A DNA stretch of 64,000 bases. Source: Amphibalanus amphitrite (taxonomy: Eukaryota). The translations under genes were made by a program, and so were the position numbers. The notes under the pieces were generated by a model. That model did no database searches. It was not told the DNA's origin and was given only the letters and a program-made list of their open reading frames with translations. The DNA lies in the NCBI RefSeq assembly GCF_019059575.1, contig NW_024881521.1, positions 665,297 through 729,296 of the forward strand. The letters run 5' to 3'. This document shows, piece by piece, positions 36,019-60,400 of the stretch. Numbering within the stretch: the first letter of the stretch is position 1; the number at the start of each line of letters is the position of its first letter.

Positions 36019-36478
36019 GCCGCAGAGCGCCGCGCGGCGCCACGCGACTAACTGCCCAGGTGGTCCGCCCGACTAACTGCCCAGGTGGTTGGATTCCTGG
36101 TCAGCCGAGATTTTGCACGGTCTCCTCTGTGATTTTGAATTGAAGACATCCCAGACTGGAAGAGAAGAGATGCCAGTACAAGACGCGTCTCGTACAATTT
36201 TTTGTTTTTGGAAGCGATTTTCCACTGTCTGACGCCTACAACCAGCGAAACCGTGAGCCGTGCCACCAGATTTTTGCCGGGACGAATTACGGTTTAATTT
36301 AATCTTCCAACCGCAGAGTCTAGTCTCGATGTATGAGAGTGGGTAGGTTACCTGTCCTGTGTTTTCCATAGTCACGGGTGACGGCTGGGCTCCTAGCCTC
36401 CTAACAGCACTCACAAGTTCCACTCCACTAGACCTGGCGAGTGCTGCAGGTAGTTTCGCGAGTGCGGCGTACGTTTAA

Positions 36479-37647
36479 CCCGCGCCCCGTAGGGGGGGGG
36501 CCGAAACGGCCCCCCTGTCCTTTTCGGTCGATATCTCCTAAACGGCTGGAGATATCGCCACTAAACTTTCAGGACCCCTCCGGGCATCAATTTTACACAT
36601 TGTGACCAAAAATTTTTCCAGAGGCTGTGGTAGGTTGGCCACAAATGACGTCAGAGTGACGTCATGTTCTGTCATTTTCGACCGAAAAAAGACCTTCGCG
36701 AGAAGACCTGTCAGGCCTACAGCTTTGAAGATACAGAAAAATGATCAAGACATAAAAGGTGTAGAATTGACAGGGCTACAAAACTGCTATCTCGGATTTT
36801 TGAAATTTTTGAGTTTTGATCCCCAAAAATCAAAAAAGCATTTTTTTGGATATATTAGCCAAAAAATCCAAAAAGTTTTTTGAGTTTCGGAAAAACCGGA
36901 ATATATGTGATAGTACCTACCGTCTTCTATCTACATACCAAATTTCAGATCGATACCTCGTTTTTTGGCCAAGTTATAGCGAAAAAACTGTTCAAAAATG
37001 ATGACGTCAAATTTTCAAACTCAATTTTTGGCAATTCTAGAAATCGTAGAGCAAAACAAAGACCACCATTAGACTCCCCGTGACGAGCTGCATCGAATGG
37101 ATACCCATTTTATGCAAAAATATCAACTTTGAAATTTGACCTAATTTGACCTGACCTTGACCTGACCTTCACCAAAACGTGACCTAGGCTGGCCCCAAAG
37201 GCTGCCTAACCCACATAATCGCATTTATCATGTAAAATGGACCATAAAACATGTATCACACGACACATTCATATTGTGACCCCCGGTGACCTGACCTCGC
37301 TGTGACCTGACCTGGTATCAGTGACCTCAGATAGCAAAGTATGTGTTTGACGAACAATATACCATCGATGGTTTTCAACAAATTACCAATTTACTCGATT
37401 TCACAGCACATTTCTTGAATTGCCTGTGAACGGTGAAAATCTGACCTTTGACCTGACCTGTGACGTCATCGGTTTGACCTAGGTCAATGAAATTTGGTCA
37501 CAAGGTAGTTCCCGGGTAGGGCTATCAAACGCCGTTTGAATTTTGAAAATCGGCCGGTAACTTTCCGAGATCTTAGGGGGGGGCCGAAACGGCCCCCCCC
37601 CCCCCCTACGGGTGGTAGGGTCCGCCGGTAGCCCTACGGGGCGCGGG
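36479..37647 (-). mobile_element. ~1.17-kb TTAA-flanked non-autonomous TIR element (piggyBac-like target preference), CCCGCGCC family
   Basis: The termini are TTAA|CCCGCGCCCCGTAGGG…GGCCGAAACGGCCCC (36475…) and …CCCTACGGGGCGCGGG|TTAA (…37651). The interior has GACCTGACC/GGTCAGGTCA palindromic motifs and a TGACGTCA motif. It is the same family as, and inverted relative to, 56300-57476. Confidence 0.7.
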
Positions 37648-38921
37648 TTAAAAGACCGCAGCATTCATTTCAGAGTGCTGCTCGCCAGCTTTCGCCTGTA
37701 AGCACGGGTCCGTTCCAACGGTAGATGATGCCTGGTGACTGTCTGCCTCGCTCGAGCCCCCCAGCTCCCGACCCAGCCTAGGCTCCTGCCGGGGTTCGCT
37801 CGCGTCCATGTGTGCTCTTATCTACTGCCGCTTGCCTCGGAATAGGGTGCTAGGAATACGTGAGTCCCATGTAATCGTCACGTGATAGTTGGTTGCGCAC
37901 TAGGGTGATTTGTCCGTGCCGTGCTGGTTGGTTCGCGTCCGCAGAGTTGGCTGTGGCTGAAGTGCGCTTCTGGCAGGGTGTGCTGCTTTGTAGGCGTACA
38001 GCTCGGCGCCTAATGCCATTATTGTAGTCTTTGTGTCCGCCTTGTGTACTTGTTGTCTTCTAAAGAACATAATACAATATAAAATAGTAAGGGAAATTTA
38101 TAATGCTTGATGAAATGATCAGTACGCCAAGATGGCCTAGAAAACAGAATAGCATTCGGAAATAGAATCTCATTTCAGTTTTGTTTACTTATTCACTATT
38201 CTTACTCCTTAGAACAGCTAGCATGCACATAAAATCAAAACGAGGCTGTTTCTGCTCGTCAACCACACACGGTATCGTACATTGTCGAATGTCAGGCGTC
38301 TCCCGGGCGCTCCAATTTCTGTTTTTGGAATTCGACAACAGACATGCACTAATTCCACTGAAAACGATGCAGTACCGCCAAGCCTCAAATGTCGACCGCA
38401 GAGCTCAACCTGAATCGTTGGATAAAACATGCTACATAGGAGTCGTTTGACGGCTCGTTAGGCTCACCCGGGCAAACTGGTATAATATGTCCTGGACGGC
38501 GCATTTGCCTCTGAGGACAACATGGTGCATGTAACATAATGCCACTGTCGCCAGTGCCGAGCTGAGCCAGCCTGGGTGATATAACCGGTCGGTCACTGCC
38601 CTATTTAGAGTTCGACACATCATCAAACGCGAAGAGCTGCTCTCTGTCAGATACCTTACCTCTGGACCGTTTACAGCTGACTTCAGTCACAGTACTAACC
38701 CTAACATCGTACATAATAGTAGTACATATACCTAGAAGTGAGTTAGACTCAATCACTGTACCAGCTATCACTTGTCTTCAATGCCACGTCACGCTCCCAT
38801 CGTATCTGTGATCACGACTTGACCTGTGTCCGTGTCACATGATCAGTGTCACGGTGTCACCTGCCCTGACCTGTACACGGTGTTTCCTGACCTTTGACCG
38901 TGTCACCTAACCTGACCTGTG

Positions 38922-41900
38922 TCACAGTGTGACCTGACACCGGTCGAAGGTGGCCACACAGTCGGCTCCGCGCCGTCCCTGCCTCATGGCCAGCAGATGG
39001 TCGGAGGGAGACGCCTCAGGCAGCAGCAGTGACAGCAGCAGGCCGCCCGTATACGTCAGCGCTGAGTGCAGTGCTGACTGCGAGCGGGCCTTCTGATTCA
39101 GCTCACACAGCAGACGGCGACCGCACTGCGAGCCCGCCTCCCTGCGGACAGAACGGTAACTAGTGGTTCATCGAATGACCGCTAGGTGGACAAATACGGT
39201 ACCGCTTCTCGCTGCTAGAAATATACACAAATCGAGCTGTTTCAAGATAATTGCTGGCATGCTATGGTTAAAATTAAATCACCTCTCTATGGGCTCCCTT
39301 GACCCTCCCCTTCCCCGCCCCGGCACAAGATGCAACTACCGAAACCGTGCTCCTCTCGGTAAGCCCCTCGTCTCTCGCTGCCCTCACCCATCCCACTCAC
39401 CCATGCATCCACACTGTGATCATGTTGAGGCCGATCTCCAGCAGACTGTTGATGTACTCGCCGATGATTCCCGGCCCGGGGAGCAGCACCTCCCGGCCTG
39501 CCGACGCTTCCTCATCTTCCAACTCCGCCAGGAGTCTGTCCCAGCGGTCCGGCGGTGTCGCCCATCGCAGCAGCTCGGGACCCAGCAGACGGCCCCAGAG
39601 ACCGCCGGCGGACCGGCCGCCCCCGCCGCCCGCCAGAGCGTCGTTGATGGCGTCGAAAAGGAGGACTCCCAGCGCGAGCACCGCTAGCGTGACCAGCGAG
39701 TTACCGGCGCCAGTTATTCTGTGGGTCAGGTTTCAGTCTGTCAGCGAAGGAGCGCCGATCGCCGATCATCGTCTTGTGAAGTTCATCGAGCTACAGGGTG
39801 TCCCATAAGTTCGTTCTCACATTATGTTTGCATGTGAAACAGAGTACATTGCGTTTTAATATATTTATGACCCCTCAATGTGCTCCCCATTTAATTGGCA
39901 AACACATGAATACATGCTGCGGCATGCCAAACGGCATGTTTGGCTGCATAGCAGGCTTAAAGTTAACCCAGACTGACTTGACATGCGCCGTGAGCTCCTC
40001 GAGGCTGGAACAGCGCTACGCTTCGACGAGCCTCAATTTCAGCATAACCAACAAATTTTTATGAAATTTTGATCCAATGAGGTGCCTGGCATGTGATCTT
40101 GCCACAAACGCCTGTCACAGTCTCCTTGCACCGCTTTTAAGCTTTGCTTGACCTGTGCACTGATGCACTGTCTTGCCTGAAGATGGGCCTACGACCTCCC
40201 GGATGCCATTTTCTCCTCTATAAATATGTTCATACTCGCGGTTCGAGTTCAGCTTGAGGGCTGAAACTCCTCCTAGATGTTCTTGGAAAAACATTCTGTT
40301 TCTCAAAACTGTTTCTGGGTTGCCACTTGCAACTTGGTCAACTCCAGAACGCCTATAACCCCACAACACACTAACACAGTGACCTGGCCTTTTGCATAGG
40401 AACATAACGGGACGAAACGGAGGCCTCCTCCTCCGCCCTTATGGGGTTGTATTCGGGTTTGGACGGGTGTTTCATCTCGAACGTGGACTAGTTAGTCCTG
40501 ATGACCTGGTTGATGTCATCAGCCCTCTGTTTTGTTTAGCCTCAGACATAACGAAACTCATGTTTGGCCATTTTAAGACGTTTTTGACTGTTTTGTGCCC
40601 TCCGTTAAGCAAAGCTTAAGTCACCTTGAGTTATGTACCCCGAAAGAACACTCTTAGACAGCTGGTAATCCATCCTGAAAAGTCTGCTTACCAACTTTGT
40701 AACCCTTTGACCTTTTTGATGCCACTTTGGCGCCACACAGTTTTGGCCACTTGGCTCACTCCTGAGGGCTGACTGGAAAGAGGATAAACTTGTAGTGACT
40801 GACTCCCGACAAATCATCGGCGTCACTTGCTGACTGTGCGTCCAGTTAGCGATGGGCATTGGCTACAGACTGGTAGGCCTCAATCACCCTCAATCGTCGC
40901 GAATGGTCACGTGCTGACTAAATACTGAGACGTACCCGTATCGGAGACCTCTATGTTGCGGCGTTAGCCGTCTCTGTAGGAAGCGGGCTCTATAGTAAAA
41001 ACTATTTTGTCTACAGAAATTAGCTAATGTGGAGCATATTTCTACCAGCCATGGCAACCACGTAAGCTCAGTTACGAACCAATTTCAGCGTGCCTTTAAG
41101 CAAGAGAGCCTAAAAACGTAAAATTTAGGTGAGAACGAACTTATGGGACACCCTGTATATTGGGCAAGGCCCTTGTAAAAAGCGACTATTCTGCTGGCAG
41201 GAGTTATAGTGAAAGCTATTTTTTTAGACAAATCACCCGCTACAAGGCGTCATGACTTAACTAAGCATGTTCTACGGACAGTCTTAAGCAGGCGAGCTCA
41301 GGTTCAGCCTACCTACCTCATTTGCGAGTCCAGCCTCTGTGACAGCTTCTGTCGGACCAGCTGGATGCGAGCGCTGATGTCTTCCAGTCGCTCCGTCAGC
41401 TCGGAGCTGGGTGGTTCAGTGGGGAGCTGTCCAGGGGCCGTCTCACGGCCTCCCCCGCTGCCGGCGGGATTTGGACCGGGCTCTGGCCATGGCTCTGTCT
41501 GAGGATGGATCTCCGGGGGCTCCGTCTGAAGATGGGGCTCTGGGTGGTGTTCCGGCCACTCCTGGAGCTCTGAGTGTTCATTTGGAGGATCGGACTCCGA
41601 CTGGAGCTCCAGGTCGACTCCTGGTCGGCGGTCTATCGGAGTTTCTGGTCGCTCTGTCTGATGCTCCGGGTGCTCCGTCTGAACGTGAAGCTCCGAGTGC
41701 TCCGAGTGCTCTGACCAGTGCTCCGTCTGAAGGCAGTGCTCCGGGTGCTTCGTTTGGTAATTTACCCCGGCGCTCGCCTCCGTGGGTACGGTGACCTCTG
41801 AAACCATTGTGGTCCTCTCTACCTGACCCTCCACGCCTGGCTCAACAGTGCTCGGCGGTTGGCCGGTGGTGACAGAGACAGGCGGCCTCCAGACTGGCCA

Positions 41901-42203
41901 GGCCGTGTGGGAGCGAAGGAGACTGGTCACAACCTGAACCTCTCCGGGAGAATGCAGGCTGCTCGAACCAGGCTTAGAAGGGCTAGATGTTGTTACCGGG
42001 CTAGATCTGGTAGAAGTTGGGTCCTCCGGTCGGAATTTGCTGATTCTGCTGATTCGGAGTGGAGCTCTTCTGAGCCGCACCAGCCGTTGAACGTCACCAC
42101 TTTGAGCACTGACCGTCCCGGCCTCAGCCAGCAGTCCTCCCAGCACTGCTGCCATCAGCAGCACACGAGTCAGCTCCGACATCGACATGATGTTCACTGG
42201 CAC
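38922..42203 (-). CDS. Three-exon gene for a predicted type I membrane protein (~474 aa): signal peptide, His/Glu/Pro-rich repeat ectodomain, one TM helix, cytoplasmic tail
   Basis: Exon 1 is 41317..42203 (ATG; signal MSMSELTRVLLMAAVLGGLLAEAG; repeats EHSEHSELHVQTEHPEHQTERPETP; donor GAG|GTAGGT). Exon 2 is 39401..39718 (acceptor CCCACAG|A; TM LVTLAVLALGVLLF; donor CATGG|GTGAGT). Exon 3 is 38922..39141 (acceptor TGTCCGCAG|G; stop TGA). Both junctions are phase-consistent (AG+A = Arg; GG+G = Gly). The 1.6-kb intron contains a Tc1/mariner-type MITE. Confidence 0.45.
39794..41155. mobile_element. ~1.36-kb TA-flanked MITE with a perfect 27-bp TIR (CAGGGTGTCCCATAAGTTCGTTCTCAC); Tc1/mariner-type
   Basis: The flanks are TA|CAGGGTG…CACCCTG|TA (TA at 39792-93 and 41156-57). 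It has no intact transposase ORF and sits in the intron of the 38922-42203 gene. Confidence 0.65.
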
Positions 42204-44289
42204 TGACGCGGTGTGACGCCGAGCGCCGCTCTACCGACCAGTGCAGCGGCAGGCACGACCGCACGGTGATCTACCTAATCGGGTCTGACCGCCGTCCGAC
42301 CGCATCCGACCGCGACCCAGTCATCCAGTGATCAATGTCCGACCGCCAACCGGTCCCCGTCTACCTACAGCACAGACACAGGTGACGAATTATGGACCAC
42401 CTTCCACAACAGATCACTGACTCTCCCGCGCACCGAAACACACAAACAAACCCAGAAACCGGCTGCAGCTTAAACCGTCCTCGATCGGCTCAGGTAAGCC
42501 GAATTCTCGTGCACTGATCTACCGGTCGAGAGGTCAATGCTCGGTGATATGTCTTCTAGATTCGCTGAATCGGTCGCCACTGAGCACAGTCACTATTCAA
42601 CTCTCTCCCCAGCCCGTTGTCAACCGCTTCACGCTATCTCCGTCAGTTCGCTCAGCTGCCACCAACCACACTCGGCGACCGAGCTCTCCGACGATTCGGC
42701 GCCATTCAGCGCTGCCTCTACCAGCACTCTGAGCCAAGCACCATCCGGAGCAGACCGGAGCAGCCGCCGAGCGCCGTGACGCTCCGTGCCCCCGCCCCCG
42801 GCTCCCGGAGCGTCACGGATGGGTCATGGCCCGCGTCACGGCCGTCACGACGTCACGGTGTGGGTTACCGCTGTGCTGGATTCGCGAGAAGGGACTGCAG
42901 AATGCATAATGAGGTGACAAAAGTTCGTATGCCTTTTCGCACATTAATAGCTGCATTTTTGAACCAAGCGTTGTACGGTACACGCTGCACAGCGCACACT
43001 GCGTTAGGTAACGAGCCCTTTCCCCATGGACCCCACTTATAAACGGGTACTCGATACCAATTGATACATGCTATATGGCAGCTACATATAAGCCATCGGC
43101 TGTTGTAAATGGCATACCCTAACCTCGAGGAAATACTATTATTCGAAGTGTCCTGACTGCCTATACGGATTGAATGCAGCGTCGGAGCTTCCACCGGCCC
43201 AGACGACCACGTACCGTTTGATCTCAGAAGCTCACCGCCTCCGCACATGATCCCTAATTAATTACGCCTAACTAGCCATAAACCACTCCCTTCGGCGCGG
43301 TGTCGACTGCGGCTCGGTCACGGTAGCGCCGCCAGTGCGCCACATACGCCGCCGATGCGCAGCAGTCCCGTCTTCACGGCGGACGGCGGAGCATGACGGC
43401 CGCCGGTCCCGAGCGGAAAGGTAACGGGACGGGTGTCAGGAGCGGCATATCGTGGGCGCCACGGGACACGATAGAGGAGCGCAGGGCGCGGCCGGGGTAC
43501 CGAAATCAAGGTACGGTGAGAAGAAGCCGAAATATATGAGCAGTGACGGAAGTGCCACCGGTCGTGGCAACTGGCACAGAGACCGTATGACGTGATGGTT
43601 GGGTCGTGCATAAACATAACCGTGCTAGCTGGATGTAACACGGAACCGCGTGCATCAGAAATGATCGGATGTCGTGTTCCGTCGACCATCTGCTGTGGAA
43701 ATGTTCAGATGTGCATTCATGGCATTAGTAGGTAGTGCATCTCTGGCGGATGCCATCTGTTCTAAATTCTGGCTGTGCTGTCGGTCGTGGTTACGCTGTT
43801 CTCCCGTGGTGGTGAGTGTGCACCGTTTCACTGTTCCAGTGCATTTCAATGACGAATGGGACGCGCTCAGACAGACCCAGTTCGTCTGTCATGCATATCG
43901 TATGGAGACAGACGGGGATTGACCCAACAATCAACATATTATCGGGCTGACTGGAAAAGAGGTCACAAAGGCAACGAGTGGCTGATCAGAGGAACCCAAG
44001 CATGAAACTGTCATGTGTACCTATTGTGTAGGCATCTTGTGTATCGTATCATTTCAAACCGTCAAGTGAATTATGCACGATACCCGATAATGATTATTTC
44101 GCAACGTAGGTTCAGTATTAAGATATTTGCAAACGCTCTACGAGTACGTACCTTTTAAGCTATACCTATATGTATATGAAGAGCAAAAAAATTGAGATGC
44201 TACATCACTGAATTTTTTTACGATCCAGAAAACGTTGCAAGGCCTGATATGCAAACAATCCTAACCGTTTTAACAACTTTTTCAAAGGA

Positions 44290-44700
44290 TGTTTAGATAA
44301 GTATTAAATGTGTGAAGGGGTAAGGGGCGTAATACGGCTTTTAACGTTTAAGCGGCTACAATATCTACGATTATAGGTACGGCTAATACTATCAGGTGCA
44401 TTAAACGTCTAAAAAATGTTTGAACGGCTTATAACTTAAGTTTTCAATTAGACGTTAAAACGACCATTTGATGTTAAAGAGACGTATTAATTTTTGTGAG
44501 TACTGACAATGATAGATAGGCGGCTAGTTAGCATTTAAACCGCTTTTAATCATTTTCACGGCCTAAATATATTTAAACGGCTAGAAGACCTTTAAAGGGC
44601 AACTCAAATCAACGTTTAAACGACCTTTAGACGTTTTAATGTCTAGTAAAACGTTTAAACGGCTAAAAGACGTCTCACAATTTCTAATCGTATTTAGAAG
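44290..44700. repeat. Cluster of ~10 degenerate copies of an ACGTTTAAACGGCT-like 14-mer
   Basis: A direct read shows repeats such as aacgtttaagcggct, gtttaaacggct, gcatttaaaccgct, caacgtttaaacgacc and aaacgtttaaacggct within an AT-rich stretch. Confidence 0.4.
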
Positions 44701-46775
44701 TCCGTCGAGTGGTAAGTGGTAACGCAAAACGGTTTTGTCTTCATTAGACAGAAAAATGCTTTTTTGAAACTAGCTACTCATCTGTCATGGTAACTAACGT
44801 TTAAATAACTAGCTTTCGGAAATCGGAATATTGATCAAATAATCTTAACGTCCACCCAGACGTTTCAAACTTCTACCAAGGATTACGTGTAATATTTCCT
44901 ATATATTTTGTGCTTCCAAATCGTCTAGTTAGTCGCACACGAAAGTCAGGAGTGCCGCGCACGGTGAGAAGAGCCACCCACCCTCTCTCAATCGGTCACT
45001 TCGGAGGAAAAGAGTCCCATTGAAATTGTTCTCTGTCGGGTGTCCCGCTGGGACGATTGTCAGCCGACTGCCAAGAGCGATTTGCTGGTTCTTAGCATGA
45101 AGATTGAGGATGGCATCGCTTAGAAGCGGCCAGTCAATGCACAGGAACTGACGTCTCTTTCCTGGTAGACTGTTCCGCACTACACGCGTGATTGCGGCGC
45201 AGCATGATCCCTATATCGCACGGATGCCGAACAATCTACAAAACAAATAGCTGTTTAGAGCGAAAAGTCCAATAACTTATGCAATTGATCGCTTGGCTGT
45301 TTCTGGGCATACCATGTGACTCTCGGCTGTTGGGTACTGCTGAGCGTCACCTGTGTGGTCCGGGCCATATATGAGTATGCACCTATGCATAGTGTCTGAA
45401 GCACCATTCTTCGTTCTCAGAGCAGAGGGCGCTGGCCGTTGGACCTGGACGTTCTCCAACCTTTGTGCAGCAGATGGCGCTATAGATACCTACTCAGTTC
45501 AGAGCTGGACGCGTTTGCCTTGGTTGTATTCACCAGCCACCATTGGAGGTGGTAGTCTGGTAGGTGGCATTGGTTGCCACCCTTTCTCAGACAGCCGTGA
45601 CATGGAGACAGGAGACCCATGCTTTAGGATCACTTACGTATATTGCCTAAAGAAGTGACCATTTCAGTCACCGTTCCGTGCTTTTATCCTCAGGATACTG
45701 AAATCCTTCTCCTCCACGCCGCAACCCCTCTCCGGGCTGGACAGGCAACTTTATCTCATGCGGGCTGCTCCCTTGGAGCGGCACCGCTGCTCCCGAGGGA
45801 GCGCACCCCGTAGCCGGGTGCAGTGAGTGCCTTGGGGCTGGGTGGCCTGTCCTCTGGACGGGCTCAGCCCCGGCGACTCACTAGGGTGCCTGCCCAGACC
45901 AATGTCTCCCCCTTTATCCTATCATCCTCCCGGCTCTGAAATGGTCCCATTGGACCGAAAGGGCCTAACCCAACAAAACAAAAAGAAAACAAACAAAACC
46001 ATTTCAGAGCCGAACGATGATAACAGGGACGTAGCAAGGGGGGCACGGGGGCCATGGCTCCCTCCCCTTGTAGGCAAAAAATGATACAAAATTAAATAAA
46101 AGATAATAAATAAAAACAGCTGCACCACACATCCAAAAATAGTGGGCCGAATCCGAGAAGCTTTCCTTTTTTGGAGGGGTACGACACTAGGCCGCGACCT
46201 GTGGCCCCTCCCTAAGCAAAATACTGGCTTCGTGCCTGGATGATAAAGCCAAGAGCGACATCACAAAGAAACGTTACCGATCAGTGGGTGACCGCGGCTC
46301 AGCCGTGTCCCGAGGACGAGGGCGAGCCTCTAAATACAGGCAATCTATTTTTAGGTGGGATCTTATACGTGGGCATGCCTACTTGCATTTAATTCTGAAA
46401 GAGAAAAGTTTTAAAATAACAATTTTTTTTTTCAGATCAAATTTAATCTCACTGTAAGAAACGGTGTTGACTATTAATCGATGAATGTCGCCCCATTCAT
46501 ACGCAAAACATTTGGTCATTTCACTATATACCCGCATGCACCGCAGCAAAACGACAAACGAGCACAGACCAATGGTCAACCAACTTGCATGCAGCATCTC
46601 TAAACATCACGGAACGAAACACCCACACGCAAAAATACACGAACATAGCTATGGAATAATAACAATATAACCAGTAAAACGCCTTTTGGGCGAAGAACGA
46701 GCGAGCGAGATAGTGAGCCCTGCACGTGCGGAAGGGCGAGAGGGTGCTTCCAACGGGCTTGCGCAAAGCACCCTT

Positions 46776-46990
46776 CTAACTGGTCGCTAGCGGTGTGCCA
46801 AATTTGAACGCAATCGGCCCAGCCGTTCCTGAGATCTGGAAGCGGCATTCTGCACGTGCGCACGTGCAAACGGGGTCCAAAATGACTTTTGCACGGCACC
46901 CTACTAACTGGTCCCCAACCGTGTACCAAATTTGAGCGCAATCGGCCCAGCCGTTCTCGAGATCTGGAAACGCCCCCTGCACGTGCGCAC
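46776..46990. repeat. Tandem duplication of a ~110-bp module (…AACTGGTC…CCAAATTTGA(A/G)CGCAATCGGCCCAGCCGTTC…GAGATCTGGAA…GCACGTGCGCACGTGCA), with further diverged copies to ~47440
   Basis: Direct read. The ORF 46600..47160 spanning it is not credible coding. Confidence 0.6.
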
Positions 46991-47445
46991 GTGCAGTACC
47001 ACCCTAATCGCAACACATGGGAATGCATTGCCTGGTGGGTGCCTACCTGTATGCCAAGTTTCAGCGAAATCGCCCCAGTAATTACCGAGTTACTGAAATG
47101 GGAACAAATTTGGCACCTCTTATTGTTGTATTTTGCACGTGCACTGGGGGTGACCCACATGCATCGAGACTATCCTATTTTGGGTAGAAGGGATGCTGCT
47201 ACCCTACAAAAATTACCGCAAGTCAATCGCCCAAGCGGCTGCTGAGATATGAGCCTCTCAAAATCACTAATTTTGCAAAACAGCTTGAACACCCTTGACT
47301 TTTCACGTGGCACGTGCCACGACGGTCACTGAGATGTATCAAAAGTAGTCAATTACGGGGTAGAAGGGATGGGGCTACCCAACAAAAAAGACCGCAGGCC
47401 AATCGGTCCAGCGGTTGCTGAGATATAAGCCTCTCAAAAGCGTTA

Positions 47446-47472
47446 CAGGCCGGGCCGGGCCGGGCCGGGCCG
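47446..47472. repeat. (GGGCC)5 microsatellite
   Basis: Direct read. Confidence 0.8.
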
Positions 47473-50400
47473 CTCATACTGAGATTTTTCCGTTATATTG
47501 AAAAGACTCACTTCGCTCGCTGCGCTCGCTCGCTCGTAATAAATGTCTGATAAATTTGCAAATTAACGCACGATCGATGCTCGCTCACCATGCATTTGGC
47601 ATGAGTAATAAATTAAAGTTGTACTCTTTCCTCCGACTAATATCCTATCTAAAGCTCAGCAGCGAAAAGCCAGCACACCGCGCTGGCTCATCCCGGTTTA
47701 TCAACGCAGGAGAACGTCGCCTCACAGCGTCCTCCCGTCCTGGCCTCCAGGACGGCGGCCAGCTTCTCCCACAGAGAGACCTCCGCCGTGGGGATCAGGG
47801 ACGTCCCGACACTGTGAAAGGGGTCTCTGGTCAGTACGGGAACGGGGTCAAACATTAAACAATGCCATCAGCGAGAGATTACATTTTTTTGTCAGCCAAT
47901 TGAAATATTCTTTTCTTCATCCAAAATTATCTCGTGAGAAAATACTTTAATTATTTGGTGTACCTATTCGAGACCGAGTATCGAACGGCTACGTAATAGT
48001 CAGCGCCATGTCCGATATCTTGAATAAACGCTATTTACATGCATACGAGTCATTTGGTATTCCCAGAAACAGCCAAGCGATCAATTGCATAAATTATTGG
48101 ACTTTTCGCTCTAAACAGCTATTTGTTTTTTAGATTGTTCGGCGTCCGCGCGATATAGGGATCATGCTGCGCCGCAATCACGCGTGTAGTGCGGAACAGT
48201 CTACCAGGAAAGAGACGTTAGTTCCTGGAGCATTAACTGACCGCTCGTAGGTATATGTGCCTACCATATATCAAGGGCGCCCTTTAAAAGCACCTACATA
48301 TATTTCCGACATTTTGAATACCTTGATTTATTATTAATCCATTTCCTACTTCAAAATGCATTAATTACCTAAGCATACAATTACCCACTATGCAACCAAT
48401 GCCCTTCGCCCCTCCCCCCCCCCCCCCTCTCGACACAAACATCGGTCTTTTTGTATCGGTTCCGTTTACCGTCTCTCACCTGACGAGGTTATAGATGAGT
48501 CCTTTGTAGACCTCCTGCTGCTGCGCTCGGCTGTTGAGCTGACAGAGCCGGCGGGCCACGCAGCCTGACCTCTCCAGCACCAGCAGCCGGGAGGTGCTCA
48601 GCAGCGCCTCGGCTGCCAGCTCGGGCACCTCGTCCACGCTGCCCAGCAGGAAGGTCAGCTCGGACCAGAGTCCGACCTCTGCGGCACCTCCGTCTCTGCG
48701 GCCTCCGGTGCCGCCGCCCGTACCCGTGCCGCCGCCACCGATCGCCTGCTGTACCAGCAGTAACAGGAACGTGCCGAACGCTAGGAAACTGAGCCCCGTG
48801 AGCAGCATCCCGAAACTGGGGAGCAGCATGCCGCCGCCGCCCCCGTAGCCCATGGACGACCTGGCTGTCGCCGCGAGCAGACGGTTAGCCGGCCGCGCTA
48901 GGGACCGGGGCACGAGCGAGGGCGCCGCAGGGCCGGGCACGGTCAGCGCAGCGAGCATCATTGTCCTCCACAGACGCCGGGATGGAAACTTGGAGGACCT
49001 AGAGGTGATTGCCATAGCTCGCAGCACTGTCACAAGTCAACAAGTCGACTGGCAAGATATGTGCACTTCCATGCGCGCTTACACTTCAACGCATACGAAA
49101 GACCAACTCGCACTTCTTCAATTGAAGCACACACAAGAAACACCCGCTGGGCGGCATGCACAAATCTGACGCGATTGAGCCATGTGCGGCGCGTCCGGGA
49201 CGGCTGCGGCGCACGTCCGTCCCGGCCGTATAGTGCAGGTGAAGTCTCACTCAGGAGCGCACAATTGACAACCGTTCTGGTACGGTGGTGACGAGGCGGA
49301 GCATTGGCGGCGGTGGCAGCGGCAACAACAGGAACGGCGAATGGGCGCACGGCGAACCCAGTCGACCGGGAGTCCCGGTGATGTGATGGCGGTGATGGCG
49401 GTGAAGATCCTCAACTGTGACCGGGTAACGGATGGGCGCAGCGACCACAAGTGGTTGATGCTTGCGTGAAGGCTATATGTAGTGGCAGACGGTTGGAAAC
49501 TCACGTGAGGAAGGTCTCCCATGCGTGCTGGTTTGGAAATTCCAGTGCAAAGAACTTAAAACACAGCTCGGCGCTCGCCCATCGCTCATAGTAGTTTCAC
49601 GGCTTGTTGCGGGTCAAAATGTTTCATTTTAATTGGTAAGCTTTCAATTGGTCCACTTTCAAACATTCATCAAAATTCGATCATCAGCATAATCTATCAA
49701 TTTGTGCGCACACCAGTAGCCGATATTAGCTACGAATGTCGTGCCGTCTTTATAATGCAATGACATATATGTCATTGCCCACCCACCTATATGTGTACAC
49801 ACGCATGTGTGTATAAATAAATGTATGCGTGGGAATGGCGCGATCTGTTGTTTACCGTTTTGTACGCTATACCGCGCCATTCGCAAATGTCCCACAGTCG
49901 ACTGCAAGCCCACCGTCTATGCGTCGTGCATACTTGGTGCATATGCCGCCTACACATCGTGCCTATAGCTTCAGCAATGTCTTATGGCACATACCGGCCC
50001 GGCAGAACGGTCCTCACTGTTAGGCGCTTACGCCAACGACTTCAGAATACCTCACCGCGACGACACGCTACGTTAATTATGGGACATTAGCCAGCATGAC
50101 ACTGGTTCGCTACGCACCGTCCTCGCTCGGGGAATTACGCCAAATTACGGCTGAAAAATGGGGCAAAATGAGCATCACAACAAACTCGAGCCCTCCTTCG
50201 CTATATGGTGTTCCACTCACAGCAGTGTGCTATCATTCCTTATTGCAGTTCGTGATATGGATTCATTGGACAAATAAAATAATGCAGTCAATAACATCAG
50301 AGCTAATGACGTCTTTTCTATCGTTCCATTTTCCTCTCAACAGTCTCAGCCATCATATTCGCATCACGCACGCCCTTGTATGAATGGCATGCGTTTCGTC

Positions 50401-51293
50401 TCGCTCCAGTTTTGTCAAAAGCCATGAAAATTATTGCTGCACTTTTAACGTGTTATGTGAGTCGGCTCTCCGTAATGCACAATAAATAAAGACGTCAAAT
50501 AATAAACGACGTTTATTATATGAACATGCTAGGCCTGTTCTTTCATATAAGCGCATGATCGAACCATTGAAAGAAAGAGAAACATAATAAATTAACATAC
50601 ACTTAATTGAATCATATGTCCCAATGCGTAAAACATTCAACAAGTTAAACACTGTTCAATACACTATTAAAGAGACACGGCACTACCCTCTGCGCTATTT
50701 TTATCGTGGCGTTAAATTCACGCTCAGATAACATAAATACTTGAACGAATTATAAAGACCCTAGGAATTAAGCGATCTGATAATTGCAAAAACATTTAAC
50801 AACATAAAAAGGAGCGTAGTGAATCTATGTCCCGCCATCCCAACTCTACTGTCACAGAGCCGTCTCGTTACATGGATTTGGAGCCACTACCCGAATGTAC
50901 TCCACGAAAAATATGAAGCTAGCCTGTTGACCTAGTCCGTCTCGTCTCCATTTGTCTCTCCATCTGCAGAGCAAGACGTGCAACGACCATGAATCTAATC
51001 TGCAAACAGTAGTCGGAACAAATGCCTTGCAAACAGACAGTCACGGTAAATAGCTCGGTCTGGCCTCAGAGTGCAACAATAACTCCAGACGAGAAACTCA
51101 GACGATTTAAATGACCCTGTTTTTGCAGCGACTGTCGACGGCCCACAGCCAGCCCGTGACCCGGGCCCGCAGTTGGATTTGTAATGCCACTAAACATAGA
51201 TTATATGGTGTCGTTTACACTGAATCAGCTGACGACCAGTTTGTGCAGGCCCGCGCGACTAGATGATCTCTGCCACCTGACCTTGACCTGACC

Positions 51294-54200
51294 TCAGGTC
51301 GGGTCAGCTGAGCAGCTTTCTGCGGCACGAGACCAGCACGAGAGGTCGCTGCTGTCGTCCGTTGCGTCCCATAGCGAAGCTCCCAGACTCAGGAGGTTCC
51401 AGACGGGTGCATCGCTCATGGCTGACTGAACCGCCCTGTAAAACGGTAAAATAAGCTGAACAGGGTCTACGTAATTTAGCGATGGAAAACCGCTAAAGCA
51501 TATGTAAACAAGCTTTCCAAACAAATATCTTTTGTTCCCAGTATTGTATAGGGCAGGCTAACACCGAAAATGATAACATTGATAACGACACAAAATTTGT
51601 TTATTATTAAAACTTAAATACCTCATTGTTAAAATTTATAAATGCTTGCAGTACATATATGAATGCCCTATCACATAAAGTTACATAATAACATTTAGCA
51701 ATAATTCTTTGAAACGCTAATTTTAAATTGAAGTGCCCCATTATACGGTTAGTTAACAATCTCCGGGGGTACTCACAGTACGGCGATGGCGGCGGCGATA
51801 TCGGCTGGGCTGTCGACCCTGGCCCTCAGCTCGTGACACAGCGCCAGCGGGCGGCAGGTCAGGTCATCGGGCAGGGCGGCGACGGAGCCGGACAGCGAGC
51901 GGTAGGTGCCCAACAGGTGACCCACGGTGCTGGAGCCGGAGGGACAGGTCTGGTGGCTAATCTCGTCAGCAACCTCTTCACCACTTCCTTCAGCAAGGTG
52001 GTCAGCGTCTTCAGAAGCGTTTGCTTCGCTTTGGTCAAGATATTTGGTGGTGATGTTGGTGGCATGTTCTTGCTGCTGTCTGCTGGCTCCTTCAGCGTCA
52101 TCAGTCAGGCCGTCTGTACAGCGTTCCGTCAGGATCTCTAGCTCGCGGAGCAGTCTGGATCCTGCGCCCGCCACCTGACCTCCTCCCTCCTGGGTCAGCG
52201 CGTCCACCACCCAGAGGTTTGCGGTGGTGTTACCAAGCACCTCTCCAAGGGCCACGGCACGCTCCGCCGCGAACAGCGCGAACGGAAGAACAACGAGCGC
52301 CGAGAGAAGGCCGTCCACCACCGACGACCTGCCGGTACCGGCGGGCAGACCGGCTCGGTCCTGGAGGATCGTCGAGTCCGGCTCACCCCAGTCCGTGTAT
52401 TGCAGCACCTGACCTCTCTCATCAGCTCTGGTCCTATCCCAGCGCTCATCGCGCCTCAGAACACTTGGCAGAAGTGGGAATCGAATGGAGGGAACTCCCC
52501 AGTTGAGTGACGGGAATGTCGACATGCGCCGGAGGAAGCCTCCTAGCAGACCCATCTGCCAGTCGTACGCGGCGCGGAACGGAGCGCTGAGCCAGTCGAA
52601 CGACGGGAACCGGTGCTCGGCCGGCCTGTGTGGCCTGTGAGGCCCGTGAGGTCCGTGAGGTCTGTGAGGTCTGTGAGGTCTATTGGGTCGGCGAGGATGG
52701 TCAAACTCGTCCAGCGTATCAGTTTCGGCCGGTGCCGTGCCGTAGTCCACTTCTGTGACCGGGTCGAGGGTGTGTGCGTCTAGAGCTGCCTCGCTCACGG
52801 CGCCGAAGCCGGAGACCTGCGGTGTGTAGGTAGTCGGAAACGGCTGGACGTCTATGGGCTCGGAGGGCCGTGTCCCATCGCGACGGTTCGGCGACCCGCG
52901 TAGAGTCGGCAACTGAGAGTTGTAGGGAGGACCGTACATCTGGCTTGGTCGTTTCCTGGGAGCTCCATATGTTTGACTGGGTCTGCTTGGAGTGTTGTAT
53001 GAAGAGCTTGGCTTGGAATTCGGAGCACCGTTAGACGCGCTCGACGTAGACTTCGGTGGTCCGTATGATGCTTTGGGTTTACTCTTTGGTGGTCCATAAG
53101 ATGTCTTGGGTTTTGACTTCGGTGGTCCGTACGAAGCATTTGGTTTGGATTTAGGTGGCCCATACGATGCGTTTGGTTTAGACTTGGGTGGCCCATACGA
53201 TGCATTTGGCTTAGACTTTGGAGGTCCATACGAAGAGTTTGGCTTCGACTTCGGTGACCCATGCGATGGTTTCGGTTTTGCTTTTGGTGGTCCATACGAT
53301 GGTTTTGGTTTTGCCTTTGGTGGCCCGTATGATGGCCTTGGCTTTCGTTTGGGCTTGGGAGGCCCATACGAAGGTCTGGGCCTTCGCTTAGACTTTGGTG
53401 GTCCATATGAAGGTTGAGGCTTTCGCTTGGGTTTCGGAGCTCCGTACGAAGGCCTTGGCCTGGGTGCTCCATATGACGGTCTTGGTCTCTTGCGACGTCG
53501 ATGGGGTCTGTTCCTGTTTCGCCTGACGTGTCGCTCGTACCACCAGGGCGTCCTCCATGTCGTGAGGTACTCCCAGGAGGGGAACAGTCTGCGGATCCTC
53601 CTCCTCATGCCGTTCCAGATGCGGGACATCCGGGATACTATGCCGGCCCTCGGTATGGAGCTGGCTGCGGTCTGGTCTTCGTACCTGTACTCGTTGTCTC
53701 CGGCCGACCACCCGGAGTCGGAGCTAAACGCCGAGTCGTAGTCGCCGAGCTCGAGTCCATTCACTGATTCCAGCGCGTCCTGACTGGATTCGGCCGTCAG
53801 ATCAGGGTCGCCGTAGATGGGGTGCGTGTCGGCCGTCTTTGTGATGACCAGCCACTGAGAGTCGCTGGTGCCCAAGTCACCTTTCGCCGAACCACCCGGA
53901 CCAGGACTGGAGCCGAGCATTGGGGTCCACTGGAGGCTGTCGGCACAGGTACTGCACGGACCCAGTGGGGATCCGTCGTCTGACGGCCCTAAAATGGTGG
54001 AGGCGGTGGCCAGCTGATCCTCCAGGAATGGTTCCGAGCCGGCCTCGTAAGGGGCCTCCAGCCCCGTCTCCGCCACACTGGTGACTTCGGTGACCTCTGT
54101 GGCCTCGGTGCTGACCTCTGTGACGTTCGGACGGCGCAGCATCTCCTCGAAAATCGTGGCGAGCGTGTCTCGAACAGCCTCCTTAAAGCCGGTCCCGTTC

Positions 54201-54700
54201 GTGTCATGTTTCGTGCCGGTATCAACGATGGCTGCGTCACGTGCAGTCAACGAGGTGATGTATGATGTGAGGTTATCCACACGGTGAGCCGACAAGCCGT
54301 CTTTCGGTGGTGTGTTTGGGTATCCTAAACTGTTGACCTGCCTTAGGTCATCCCCTGCCGGCCAGGGCCACCCACGCTCCGGGAGACGGTAGCCGCTGAC
54401 CAGGTCGTCCTGTCCCCGCGCTGTACTCTCTCCAGCTCCGCCATCCTCTGAGATCTCCTCGTCATCCTGCCACTGTATGACCCAGTCTGGACCGGCTGAC
54501 CTGTCCACGGACATGTACCGCGATGGGGACAGGGCCGAGGCCACCGTCAGCGCGGCGGCTGAGCCGGAGCCGTGGTGTAGCAGCAGATCAGACAGGGTGG
54601 CTGGACCGAACACCGTCACCTCGTAACCTGGGCTTAACGTCAGCAGCGACAGCAACAGTGGAAGAACGGCCAGCGGCGATGGCTGCAGAAGGCGCACCAT
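51294..54700 (-). CDS. Secreted Lys/Pro-rich tandem-repeat protein. The main 2.9-kb exon is 974 codons. A possible spliced 49-codon terminal exon lies downstream
   Basis: The main exon is 51777..54700 (ATG at 54700) with a signal peptide MVRLLQPSPLAVLPLLLSLLTLSPG. About 20 units of (P)SYGPPK(S/A)KP(K/N/R) were read in the protein, followed by a (RPH)n tract. The in-frame stop TGA (51773-75) overlaps a consensus donor ACT|GTGAGT. A downstream acceptor CCGTTTTACAG|G opens an in-frame 142-nt exon (51294..51435) ending in TGA. That gives two alternative C-termini (974 aa unspliced, ~1021 aa spliced). Confidence 0.55.
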
Positions 54701-55187
54701 CGTCGAGCTAAAAGGCGAGACAGGTGGAGGGTTTCGCCCTTAAACCACGGAGCTTCACTTTTCACTGGAATTACATACCGATTTTGGTTGCGTCACGATG
54801 TTCAAGGTGACACACAAGGCTCAACCATGGGTCCAGTTTTCGATCCGTTCTTGATTGACTCACACCACGTCAGTGCCCGTCATTCTACACCTTCCAGATA
54901 ACACCGTTCAGTTCAACCTCACTCTCGGCGTCCAACTCAGGAGTCAGCACCGTCGCTGCCGGCGGCAGTGCTGCCTCGACGCGACTGGTCACGGGCCGGG
55001 TCAGGACCCCGGAAGGTCCGGCCTCCGCCCCGCCCCGGCGCCCACACTCGCTACCGCTACCACCACCAGCGGCCCGAGCAGCCATTAGTTCACCCAAACG
55101 CAGCTGGGGCGTGCAACTGGTGCGCCGGTGGCACGGGGCCACGGCACCGGACCAGTGGGACACGGCCGGCCACGGGCGGCGACGGAA

Positions 55188-55275
55188 CCGTCACGAAACG
55201 GTCCGAGCCGGAGCGCAGCGGCACGGAATCGGTCACGGAATCGGTCACGGAACGGTTACGGAAACGGTCACGAAT
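55188..55275. repeat. Degenerate 12-bp tandem repeat (CACGGAATCGGT)n
   Basis: The sequence reads cggcacggaatcggtcacggaatcggtcacggaacggttacggaaacggtcacgaatggtcac. It sits in a GC-rich block with a GC-box CCGCCCCGCCCC at ~55025. Confidence 0.5.
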
Positions 55276-56299
55276 GGTCACCGAGCCGTCATGGAGCCGA
55301 GACGGAAACGGCGAGGAGTCGTCACGAAAGCAACGGCAAGTATACAGTTGTATATTTACACAAGCTGGACAGAGTCACAAGACAGCCTGGTGTATCGTCA
55401 ACATCACGCGAACATAAGACAAAAAGTGAAATAATGAAACGACTGTTACGTTCTGAATGGCATGTCGGAGGCATGCGTGAGCATGAAAATGGTGGATCCT
55501 GGGTGACCTGGATCAACTCACAAACCTCGTGCGTGCGCTGGTCGCACGGTGCATCGAAGATAGCGCTACACCGCTCCATCATTAGAGTCCGAAGAGGCGC
55601 GCCCGAAGGAGGCCATCTGTCTCAGAGACTGTGGCCGCTCGGAGCGGATTGTCACGAGTCGTTAGACGGCGCTCGTCACTCACTAACACGCACTCCGTCA
55701 CAGTGAGTGATTGAAACTCGAAGAAACTCCCCGCGGCGGCCAACAAACGGCCTGGCGCGTGTAAAACAATCACGCAGCTGGCAGCCGTCCGTGGAACATA
55801 AATTGTAGGCGAGCGCTAAACGATCTCTTCTCTAGCTTCTAAGTAGACGCGACCCACATTCATGATAAAAAATGAGCAGCAAAAGCGTTATTTTATTAAA
55901 ACATATGAGAGCAATGCGACGGTAATAGCTGGCTAAATTGCTACCACCCAAATTACATTATTCATCAATCATCATCTGTCCAAAGAACGCATTGCAAATT
56001 GTACACATGTGTTATGCAGTGCACAATGCACATGGTTATAGTTGCAAATTTGAACCCGGCTAATGATAACGCACATAAAATAAATTGCATTTTCTCGCAG
56101 CTTCGATATCCTAATTCTCCGATAAACGGGGTCAGACGTCCTCCAATTTCACTCATTTCCTACCGTTGAAGTCCGGAGTGCGAATAAAACTGTTTGTAGA
56201 TTTTATCATTATATATCTCTGAAACAAGATAAAGCATTGTTTAGCCGATACACTTGGTAAAAAATAACCACTGAAGGGTTTAACGGTCAAGTTCTTTAA

Positions 56300-57476
56300 C
56301 CCGCGCCCAGATGGGGTCTGCCGAGCAACGCGGTCTGATGGGGGGGGGGGGCATTTTGGCCCCCCCCCTCAGATCTCGAGAACCACACAACATAGCGACA
56401 AGCGGTAAACGGTGTTGGATAGCCCCAACGGGGAACTTCCTTGTGACCCAATTTCATTGACCTCGGTCAAACCGATGACGTCACAGGTCAGGTCAAAGGT
56501 CGAATTTTCACCGTTTACAGGCATTTCAAGAAATGCGTTGTAAAATCGAGTAAAATGCATTTCATTGAAAATCATCGATGGAGAAATGTTCTTCAAACAC
56601 ATATTTTGCTATTTGAGGTCACTGATACCAGGTCAGGTCACAGAGGTCAGGTCACTGGGGGGGGGGGGGTCACAATATGAAAGTGTCGTGTGATACATGT
56701 TTTATGGTCCATTTTGCATGACAAATGCGATTATGTGGGTCAGACAGACTTTAGGGCCAGCTTAGGTCACGTTTTGGTCAAGGTCAGGTCAAGGTCAGGT
56801 CAAGGTCAGGTCAAATTAGGTCAAATTTCAAAGTTGATATTTTTGCATAAAATGGGTATCGATTCGATGCAGCTCGTCACGGGGAGTTCAATGGTGGTCT
56901 CCGTTTTGCGCTACGAGGTCTAGAATTGCAAAAAAATTGAGTTCAAAAATTTGACGTCATCAATTTGTAACAGTTTTTTCGCTATAACTTGGCCAAAAAA
57001 AGAGGTATCGATCTAAAATTTGGTATGTATATCGAAGAGCGCAGGGACTATCACATATATTCCGGTTTTTTCGAAATTCGAATTTTTTTGGAATTTTTTT
57101 GAGTTTTTCTAAAAAAATCATTTTTTTATTTTTGGGGGTCAAAATCCACAAATTTCGGAAATCCGAGATAGCAGTTTTGTAGCGCCGTCTTTTCTCTACA
57201 CAACCACATAAAGAACTTTAAAATTGCTTGCTAACTGTAGAATTGGTGAGCGTTTCAAGATGTCATGTTTTTTGCTCATTTTTGCTCGAACATGACCTCA
57301 GTTTGACCTCAATAACTCCTGACCTGAGGTGACCTGTGACTTGAAATTTTGTGTGAAGGTGTCAAATTGATGCCCGGTAAGGTACCAAAAATTTGGCGGC
57401 GCTGCGCGCCGCCGTTTTCTCGCTATTTAAGAAAAACCACAGGGGGGGCCAAAATGGCCCCCCATCAGGGCGCGGG
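56300..57476 (+). mobile_element. ~1.18-kb TTAA-flanked CCCGCGCC-family MITE, second full copy
   Basis: The termini are TTAA|CCCGCGCCC… (56296…) and …GGGCGCGGG|TTAA (…57480). The interior is colinear with, but inverted relative to, 36479-37647. This includes the conserved block …FEFRKNRNICDS…YQI(S/L)DRYL(V/F)FWPSYSEKTV… seen in ORFs 36816..37001 and 56960..57151. Confidence 0.7.
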
Positions 57477-60400
57477 TTAATTTAGTTTATAAATGTGCCT
57501 ATACGTTACTGGGTTCCCGTTTAAAATGTACCTACCTCGAAATGAAAACTGTTACTGCGCTTGCCGCATTAAATACGTTTAAAATGTGTAGAGTCGGCGC
57601 GGTTACAAAGGTTACTTGATAATCTGGAATATCAAACGTCTCTTACAATAATGATAAAATAGCCGAAAAGTGTTTTATTTATAAAATTTAGGTGCATGCA
57701 TCATATATAGCGATGAGATGTTTCCATGAATTATATTGTGAACATTACACAATGCCTCATAATGTTTATAGCTAGCCTAATTGAATCACAAATGTGCTTT
57801 GCCAACCACATCGTACCGTAAGTGCGCGTGCAGGTGGTGTCCGAGCGGCCCCAGCAGAGTGCAGGCCACTCTTAAACCACACTCGGCCTCCTCTCGCTCT
57901 GCCGAGAGTCCTCGGCGGCGGCGTCCTCTCCTCTGAGGACAGCCATTCTCGGAGGACGGAGAGACAGGAGGACTGCCGTGAACAGCGAGCGACCTGCGGC
58001 ACAATGCCGTAACCGGCAGTAGGTATATGTTGATCGGACGAAAGTTATATTGATCGGACTGCTTATTTGCTAATGAACATATCATATACTTATCACAAAA
58101 ACATAAATATAAAATTACTAGATGTAGAATTATTATATAACAAGGATATTATACGGCAACTACTAACATTTCTGTAGGTAACAGTATAAGTAAAGTGAAT
58201 CGAATGAATCGACCGATTAATCGAATCGATTATCGTACCAGCTGCGGACCATGTCCTCCAGCTCCCGCTGCCTCTCCTTCATGTGAGCCCGGAACGACCT
58301 GCGCCGTCTCCGTCTCCGTCTCCGTCTCCTTCGACGGCCCGGCGGCATGATGTTCACCTGTGGGTAGAGAGAGAGAGAGAGAAAAAAAAAAACGGTGCAT
58401 GCAACATGTTCAACTTGCTGCTTTAAATACAAGTGAAGCAGAGTGTCTGCTGGAAGACCTATAATGTGCAGATTAAACGGTTGGACATTTCTTTCTTATC
58501 GTACATCAATAAACAATAATAAACGGTTATACAATAATAAACGATTGATTATCAAACGTTAAACGGTAGAATCCATAAATAATTACACGCCAAATTGATG
58601 GTTTTTCACAAAACTTCATAATTATTAAGCATGTAAGGTGCTTATCCAAAAATTCGAATGAAATTGCCTCTAATATATCATATAAAATATATTTCCAAAA
58701 TATATTTGATGTAGGTACTTTGTTACTTTATTATTCGAAGGACATCCTTACCTGATTTGCGTTGTTGCTGTTCAAGTTGGCGTTCACATTATTATTGTCC
58801 AGATTGTTGTTATTATTATTGTTGTTGTTATTATTGTTATTATTGATGTTGTTATTGATATTCAACACCAGCGTCATTATGCCCACGACGAAGCTGAGAT
58901 AGTTGAAGCTGTTGAATCCGGACAGAATTCCGCCTGTGTTCACACACGGTCGTTTCTTGTTGTTTTTCTTCATGTAGAGGACGGGCACGCGGCGCCGGGT
59001 CCTCGAGCGCAGCCCGAGCCTCTCTGTCGCTGTGGTGGAGTTGGTCACAGGTGCTCCGACCTGCCGAGGCTCCTGCAGCTCTCCAGGGGATGTAAGGGAC
59101 CGGTCAGGGATCAGACCCTGCTCCTCCCAGACTGCAAGGTGCCGGGACAGCTCCGTTTCGAGCTGCATCTCCAAATTTGTCACTGACCCACCTACCTCAG
59201 CCACTGCTGCAGATCCACACACTGTCCACTTTGTCCACAACGCCCACAATGTCCACACTGGCCACACCGCCCACATCCCGCTGGAACTGCGGACCGACAG
59301 ACCATGCATGAACCTCGATCCACCGCCGCCAATAATCGGTCACCGAATCGCTGAACGCCTCTGAGCTACACCCGACACAGCCAGCGGGCATGGCAGCCGG
59401 CTCGACTCTCAAGGAGTGCTGACAGCTCGGCTCGCCGGAGTTGCAGTCCGCTAAACTCGGCACCACGCTAACGGTGATGTTCGCAGACCGTTCTATAGAC
59501 CTGGGTGTTACGAGTGGTGTGCGCCTACTCAACGGTATTTAGGCATAGCGTACCTAACCGTTCACATCCTGCAGCGATGCTGCATATACCTACCGGAGAT
59601 TGACGATTGTAGTGACTCCGTTCACGAGGAGAACTGGAGAAGATGGATTCAGGATTAGGTAAGCGGAACATAGCGGCACAACGATTATGTTCTCTAGTTC
59701 ACGCATGGTTAGACGGTCACCACCTGGGTCCTGGGCTGTTAGACGGATATATAGAATAAAACTAGGACAGTGAGCTCAGCGGTGACCGGACCCGTGCTAG
59801 ACCGGGCTCTGCTCGGCAGGACCGGGGCTAACCTTCCCCTATGTGAGCTCCACGAAAAAAAAAAACTGCGAACTGGCCCATGAGTGACAGTGTCTCTGTA
59901 ACGGAACCGAGCGATTACCCGCTGTATGGAAGGCATGGGTTCAGACTTCAGACACTATTGGGCCGGACCGTTTCAGACCGCGGGCCCGGCCCGTAAGCGA
60001 ACAGGTCATGGTCTGATTCTGCCCACGACCGTGAGGACCGGGCCAGCAAGGTCTCAGTCCTCACCGATTGTAGATAACCATACCGGTCAACGGCAAAACA
60101 GACCATCTCTGACTGGGCCTTATCTGACCAATGTATCTCAATAAAAGATTGTGGCTACCGCCTACCACACCGCATACGGCACAGGAACTTCGCTAACTAA
60201 GCGTGCCCTTATCGGCCTCTCTAAACAGACACTCTAGTCTCTGGCCAATATAACCGATCATCTCTGACTTAAGCACTGTAAGTGCAAACGAAAGAGAGAA
60301 GTCGGCACGGTGAGCCTTTCTGATGATGCTCCTATTGAATCGCATAATGCTGGGGACGAGTCCAGCATTATCCGCATAATGCTGGACTGAATAGATGCGC

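Follow-up and report, generated by a model that had tools for sequence, protein, structure and literature searches.

The stretch of DNA analyzed here (positions 665,297 to 729,296 of contig NW_024881521.1, 64,000 nucleotides, hereafter the window) contains three transposon-like elements with TTAA beside their intact ends, which we refer to as copies A, B and C. The window is nuclear DNA of the acorn barnacle Amphibalanus amphitrite, with few long open reading frames (ORFs) and a patchy GC content. We assign it to this genome because the ORF at 33601-36018, which encodes the major vault protein (MVP), matches 'major vault protein-like isoform X6 [Amphibalanus amphitrite]' at 100% identity and because contig L002 of a second assembly of the same species (GCA_009805615.1) aligns to window positions 24349-46018 at 94-100% identity. 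Copy A begins 460 bp downstream of the MVP stop codon, possibly within the MVP 3' untranslated region, and is present in L002 with the same flanks at 99.7% identity.

Copies A and B lie in opposite orientation, separated by a gap of 18,652 bp, which refines the 18.7 kb given in an earlier reading of this DNA (hereafter the sequence-only reading). Each is set between two TTAA tetranucleotides with termini of the form CCCGCGCC…GGCGCGGG, and the coordinates and termini that had been assigned to these two full copies proved exact on rereading. Just within every end lies a palindrome made of a G-run, a loop and a C-run, which bears out the G/C hairpins previously placed there. We distinguish a short end, where this palindrome abuts the terminal repeat, from a long end, where a spacer separates the two:

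36475-36478, no strand assigned: TTAA at the left (short) end of copy A
36479-37647, plus strand: copy A, complete at 1169 bp, short end at left
36479-36491, plus strand: 13-nt terminal repeat of the copy A short end, CCCGCGCCCCGTA, perfect over 16 nt against the other end
36492-36515, no strand assigned: G-run/loop/C-run palindrome of the copy A short end, GGGGGGGGGCCGAAACGGCCCCCC, directly abutting the terminal repeat
36526-36560, no strand assigned: second palindrome near the copy A short end, GATATCTCC…GGAGATATC
37576-37606, no strand assigned: G-run/loop/C-run palindrome of the copy A long end
37607-37634, minus strand: 28-nt spacer of the copy A long end, its inner part a direct copy of the terminal repeat (12/17 matches, offset 28)
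37635-37647, minus strand: 13-nt terminal repeat of the copy A long end
37648-37651, no strand assigned: TTAA at the right (long) end of copy A
56296-56299, no strand assigned: TTAA at the left (long) end of copy B
56300-57476, minus strand: copy B, complete at 1177 bp and opposite to A in orientation
56300-56312, 56313-56339 and 56340-56368: terminal repeat, 27-nt spacer and palindrome of the copy B long end
57442-57463 and 57464-57476: palindrome and terminal repeat of the copy B short end
57477-57480, no strand assigned: TTAA at the right (short) end of copy B

The colinear interior that A and B had been said to share in opposite orientation is present, but it is shorter than the ~1.1 kb first described. 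When copy A is aligned with the reverse complement of copy B, similarity covers ~860 bp (A 285-1126) at 84% identity, the longest stretch of exact match being 70 bp, and ~270 bp beside the short end are unrelated. Across the window the string TTAACCCGCGCC was counted five times where 0.39 occurrences would be expected; 0 of 100 shuffles reached this count, and its five sites are the four ends of A and B together with position 7534.

Related elements are present in other samples. Contigs L156 and L157 (ENA sample ERZ25070917), which were reached via homologues of a transposon-like protein in the window, carry two complete elements (L156_1 and L156_2; 15848-16848 and 17002-18173) and one partial element ending at 6045, respectively. 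A pattern scan of metagenome contigs for TTAACCCGCGCCCNNNNGG gave at least 120 matches, nearly all of them single chance hits, and among the matches listed only L019, L052 and L004 were true relatives; all 33 matches of a viral scan were chance. L052, which carries an element end, probably represents a transcript, as its sequence terminates in a poly(A) run. The density of copies is 3 per 64 kb in the window and 2 per 22 kb in L156.

The third element of the window had been described as a rearranged copy starting at 7538. An element does begin at this position, but its interior has no similarity to A or B and instead matches the complete 1001-bp element L156:15848-16848, so we assign copy C to a second subfamily rather than to a rearranged form of A and B. 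The features of this region are as follows:

7534-7537, no strand assigned: TTAA at the left (long) end of copy C
7538-9111, minus strand: copy C, a member of the second subfamily, with termini as in A and B and a different interior
7538-7550 and 7551-7579: terminal repeat and 29-nt spacer of the copy C long end
8468-8860, no strand assigned: nested hAT-like miniature inverted-repeat transposable element (MITE) of 393 bp in copy C, with terminal repeat TAGAGGTGGCAAAA and 8-bp duplication CACCAAGT
9112-9534, no strand assigned: 423-bp element with 39-nt perfect inverted repeats and GG…CC termini, the right-side TTAA at 9533-9536

The right (short) end of copy C keeps its palindrome and CGCCCCAGT and has lost CGGG together with the adjoining TT of the flanking TTAA; given this loss of bases from the right terminus, copy C is probably immobile. 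The 423-bp element that adjoins the damaged end is of a different, Kolobok-like kind, which fits the rule that Kolobok elements have RR…YY termini and TTAA flanks (PMC9587614).

To describe the ends of the family, we tabulated 13 intact element ends from the window and from L156, L157, L019, L052 and L004. TTAA stands beside all 13 of them, the sole exception in the material being the damaged right end of copy C, and each end continues with CCCGCGCCC (CCCGCCACC in one element), four variable bases and then G's. The resulting terminal inverted repeat is 13-16 nt long, begins with CCC and has the form CCCGCGCCC-NNNN-GGG. One short and one long end are found in each of the four complete elements, with the palindrome starting at nt 13-14 at the short end and at nt 41-44, after a spacer of 27-30 nt, at the long end. 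The two terminal repeats of an element agree at 16/16 positions in A, L156_1 and L156_2 and at 15/16 in B, and the two ends of copy A read alike in L002.

In all but one of the eight long ends, the spacer closes with an inner direct copy of the terminal repeat, at an offset of 27-28 and with agreement at 11-15 of 17 positions, a level that few or no shuffles reach; the exception, the long end of L157, agrees at only 9/17 positions. Within any one element, the four variable bases agree fully or almost fully between the two ends and the inner copy, and they differ among elements. The first 92 nt of the short ends, treated as a single strand, fold better than shuffles (z = -2.7 to -4.9). A second palindrome lies ~47-90 nt inward in three of the four short ends, and at the position of the second palindrome of copy A, copy B and L156_1 have a different one, GGCGGCGCGCAGCGCCGCC.

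No transposase is encoded by the elements, as the sequence-only reading had held. The longest ORFs in A, B and C are 93, 77 and 77 amino acids long, and the ORFs of the three copies gave no Pfam match at E ≤ 1. Previous work has shown that piggyBac elements target TTAA and have terminal repeats of 12-19 bp that usually start with CCC, and that palindromic subterminal repeats are found in many, although not all, piggyBac-like elements (PMC5381638). From the anatomy of the ends and the lack of coding capacity, we conclude with a probability of roughly 0.85 that copies A, B and C belong to the piggyBac superfamily as non-autonomous, MITE-like elements, which reside in the A. amphitrite genome without a transposase of their own. 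This is also the class that had been proposed from the letters, and each hallmark of it that can be examined at the level of sequence (TTAA, CCC…GGG termini, a terminal inverted repeat, asymmetric palindromes and non-coding interiors) was found.

The closest point of comparison is the type element of the superfamily, Trichoplusia ni piggyBac (IFP2), in which the terminal repeat measures 13 bp and a palindromic internal repeat of 19 bp is set off by spacers of 3 and 31 bp (PMC5381638, PMC2532691). The barnacle elements resemble it in their TTAA target, their CCC…GGG termini, the 13-bp length of the terminal repeat and the asymmetric placement of the palindromic subterminal repeat, with 0 and 27-30 nt here in place of the 3 and 31 bp there. 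They differ from it in that they lack a transposase gene, in having repeats without sequence similarity to those of T. ni piggyBac (CCCGCGCCC… here, CCCTAGAAAGATA there), in the palindrome itself (a G-run/C-run stem here, TGCGT…ACGCA in T. ni) and in the inner direct copy of the terminal repeat at the long end.

Structural work on piggyBac by cryo-electron microscopy showed that central domains of the transposase bind the first 16 bp of the element, that a dimer of its cysteine-rich domain binds the palindromic internal repeat, and that the active complex requires asymmetry between the ends (PMC7351741). By analogy, the barnacle elements would rely on a piggyBac DDD transposase that another locus of the genome encodes and that acts on them in trans; its DNA-binding domains would recognise the first ~16 bp, CCCGCGCCC-NNNN-GGG, and its C-terminal cysteine-rich domains would bind, as a dimer, the adjacent G-run/loop/C-run palindrome. 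The unequal spacing of the palindromes (0 vs 27-30 nt) would then yield an asymmetric synaptic complex, excision would proceed via TTAA hairpins, and reinsertion would take place at a TTAA that is thereby duplicated.

A candidate for the partner transposase comes from a survey of small animal genomes that, based on GCA_009805615.1, lists five piggyBac types in A. amphitrite (PMC10813416). One of them, PiggyBac-5_Aamp (clade B), is 4728 bp long, encodes a 645-aa transposase (VIIS01001574.1:14213-18940) and is present in eight copies, seven of them intact, with TTAA duplications (PMC10813416 Table S2). The start of its 18-bp terminal repeats is listed as CCCGC on one side and as CCTTC on the opposite side, and it is the only one of the five types with a CCCGC start (PMC10813416). 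PiggyBac-5_Aamp is thus like the barnacle elements in its host species, its CCCGC start and, presumably, its TTAA duplications, and it differs from them in its length, its transposase gene, its longer repeat and the CCTTC at its other end. We regard the PiggyBac-5_Aamp lineage as the most likely source of the transposase, a lead obtained by comparison with the published description. A search with the text of the PiggyBac-5_Aamp cysteine-rich domain, read by optical character recognition from the supplement of PMC10813416, found no candidate, and a tblastn search with the T. ni piggyBac transposase found no match in the window or in 155 fetched loci.

The borders of the copies bear on their mobility. 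Similarity among the copies stops exactly at TTAA, beyond which each copy has flanks unrelated to those of the others, and no duplication is seen outside the TTAA. These borders argue against the view that the copies are segmental duplications, or a non-mobile dispersed repeat in which the border TTAA is part of the repeated unit. The same holds for the two subfamilies, which combine unrelated interiors with the same ends, for the related elements at unrelated sites in the contigs of other samples, and for the nesting of one copy among other transposons, as is usual for mobile DNA. In addition, a related barnacle (contig L001, MVP protein 92% identical) seems to have no insertion at the copy A site: the anchors around this site are colinear and 558 bp apart there, compared with 446 bp in the window when copy A is removed, so the 1.17-kb insert is absent from L001. 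A segmental duplication would agree with the 84% identity of old copies and with the fact that no exact empty site was recovered, and it is hardly credible as an account of the family. Clean empty sites were found for three other transposons when the window was compared with L002, which indicates that the empty-site approach works where insertions are polymorphic. Look-ups with the ORFs flanking copies B and C, the mucin-like ORF and the MVP ORF near copy A returned no further allelic sequence. The piggyBac-type family looks old, given the 16% divergence between A and B and the nested insertion and broken end of copy C.

As Kolobok is the only other eukaryotic superfamily that makes TTAA duplications (PMC9587614), we also considered the possibility that the copies are non-autonomous Kolobok elements. 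TTAA flanks are common to both superfamilies (PMC9587614), and the TTAA-flanked GG…CC element at 9112-9534 beside copy C indicates that Kolobok-like elements may exist in this genome. However, Kolobok termini read 5'-RR…YY-3' (PMC9587614) while the ends of the barnacle elements all read 5'-CC…GG-3', so Kolobok does not fit them; moreover, a 13-16-bp repeat combined with an asymmetric palindromic subterminal repeat is the layout of piggyBac. We consider a Kolobok origin very improbable.

Within the piggyBac superfamily, the barnacle elements can be compared with the coral CMITEs (PMC2872659) and Daphnia mPok (PMC4912750), which are likewise non-coding and tied to piggyBac-like machinery. The CMITEs also have a similar modular make-up, with families that share some parts and differ in others (PMC2872659). 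Both CMITEs and mPok are described as miniature, unlike the barnacle elements at 1.0-1.2 kb, and CMITE interiors are better conserved than CMITE terminal repeats, whereas the barnacle elements keep their ends and vary in their interiors by subfamily.

Several observations weigh against a piggyBac-type MITE assignment or limit its reach. MITEs as a class do not code for protein, have terminal inverted repeats at their ends, are short (for the most part less than about 800 bp) and reach high copy numbers. The barnacle elements are non-coding and inverted-repeat-bounded, and their 1.0-1.2 kb exceeds the typical MITE length. Their copy counts come from the window and L156. No base-exact empty site with a single TTAA was found, the L001 site being too diverged and copy A being present in both A. 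amphitrite assemblies. Finally, the match to PiggyBac-5_Aamp rests on 5 nt at one end, with the other end listed as CCTTC.

The interiors of the elements are rich in the hexamer AGGTCA, which is a nuclear-receptor half-site. AGGTCA or its complement TGACCT occurs 12-17 times per kb in five of five elements (A, B, C and the two complete elements of L156) whereas the remainder of the window has 0.99 per kb and shuffled elements have ~0.5 each; the density is thus ~13-17-fold above that of the remaining window in both subfamilies. The palindrome TGACGTCA, which is like a cAMP response element (CRE), is found 2-4 times in A, B and L156_2, where ~0.02 would be expected. A simple explanation of the hexamer clusters is replication slippage, as the hexamers sit in short (TGACC)n-like tandem clusters.

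An alternative reading of these sites is that once-mobile piggyBac derivatives persist as carriers of putative regulatory sites (AGGTCA arrays and TGACGTCA) near genes. It draws on the enrichment of both motifs over the window and shuffles, on the sharing of the hexamer enrichment by subfamilies whose interiors are otherwise unrelated, on the location of copy A 460 bp past the MVP stop codon and on the element end held by the polyadenylated L052. We consider it quite unlikely, given that slippage could produce the (TGACC)n-like clusters, and it would add to the transposon explanation rather than replace it. By the same token, it is an unlikely but conceivable conjecture that the family has spread putative hormone- or cAMP-responsive cis-elements to places beside barnacle genes. 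Separately, the laboratory activity of piggyBac is boosted by an 'extra binding site' design of its ends, and we offer with similar reserve the idea that the strictly conserved end asymmetry of the barnacle elements, together with the inner copy of their terminal repeat, might be a natural version of this design.

The sequence-only reading had also presented the inverted pair A and B as a substrate for inversion by ectopic recombination. The two copies are only 84% identical and their longest exact match spans 70 bp. L002 is colinear with the window on both sides of copy A, nothing suggests a past inversion, and the idea is speculation without support.

In element class, target and end layout the family is textbook piggyBac, and it matters little beyond annotation. 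The family is ordinary, of a well-known kind and apparently undescribed, and the literature searched contained no account of MITEs in barnacles. The family is probably also unnamed, since the survey of piggyBac elements in this species deliberately excluded MITEs (PMC10813416). Masking it would improve barnacle gene models, and the conserved design of the ends (0 vs 27-30 nt, with an inner repeat copy) could interest those who engineer piggyBac ends if the partner transposase is active.

The region holds a number of other elements. Three transposon-sized differences separate the two A. amphitrite assemblies in ~22 kb of shared sequence. A 1362-bp element at 39794-41155, with a clean empty site in L002 (17380/17381), is Tc1/mariner-like on the basis of its terminal repeat CAGGGTGTCCCATAAG… and TA duplication. 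A 1.87-kb hAT-like element at L002 3510-5381, for which the window has an empty site at ~27880, is confined to the second assembly and has an 8-bp duplication TCCCGGTC, the terminal repeat CAG[G/C]GGCGTA and G-run/C-run hairpins near its ends; despite these hairpins it shares no interior with the piggyBac-type elements. The third indel between the assemblies, of 1272 bp, is L002 20005-21276 (empty site at window ~43757). In addition, a 3.1-kb element at 45142-48227 is bounded by inverted repeats of 181 nt, which show 96% complementarity and begin with CAGGAACT; no clear target duplication was seen.

A plus-strand ORF of 1053 codons at 17462-20623 consists, over its first third, of about twelve 78-bp (26-aa) tandem repeats, and its C-terminal half matches Pfam DUF7869, contains ADNCSAQNKNW and looks transposase-like. 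The exact protein is absent from the protein database, one paralogue is annotated in A. amphitrite, and homologues, at 30-72% identity, occur widely in contigs from ENA, JGI and Logan. The element to which this ORF belongs may be delimited by a perfect inverted repeat of 28 nt (15850-15877 / 21622-21649), which lacks TTAA flanks.

Among the genes of the window, tblastn placed MVP residues 65-877 at 33577-36015 and residues 15-65 at 32752-32904, so that 813 of the 877 residues lie in one exon (33577-36015) with a GC content near 66%. No coding sequence identical to that of a 137-aa gene of L002 is present in the window, and tRNA and Rfam scans across the 64 kb gave no match. A minus-strand ORF of 975 aa at 51773-54700 has a Pfam Mucin-like match and 33-bp tandem repeats at 52975-53432, with copy B 1.6 kb upstream of the ORF start. 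The window closes with a GC-rich minisatellite of 39-bp units at 63280-64000, and (GAAT)n/(ATTC)n microsatellites are found at ~2440-2521, 21265-21290 and 62167-62290.

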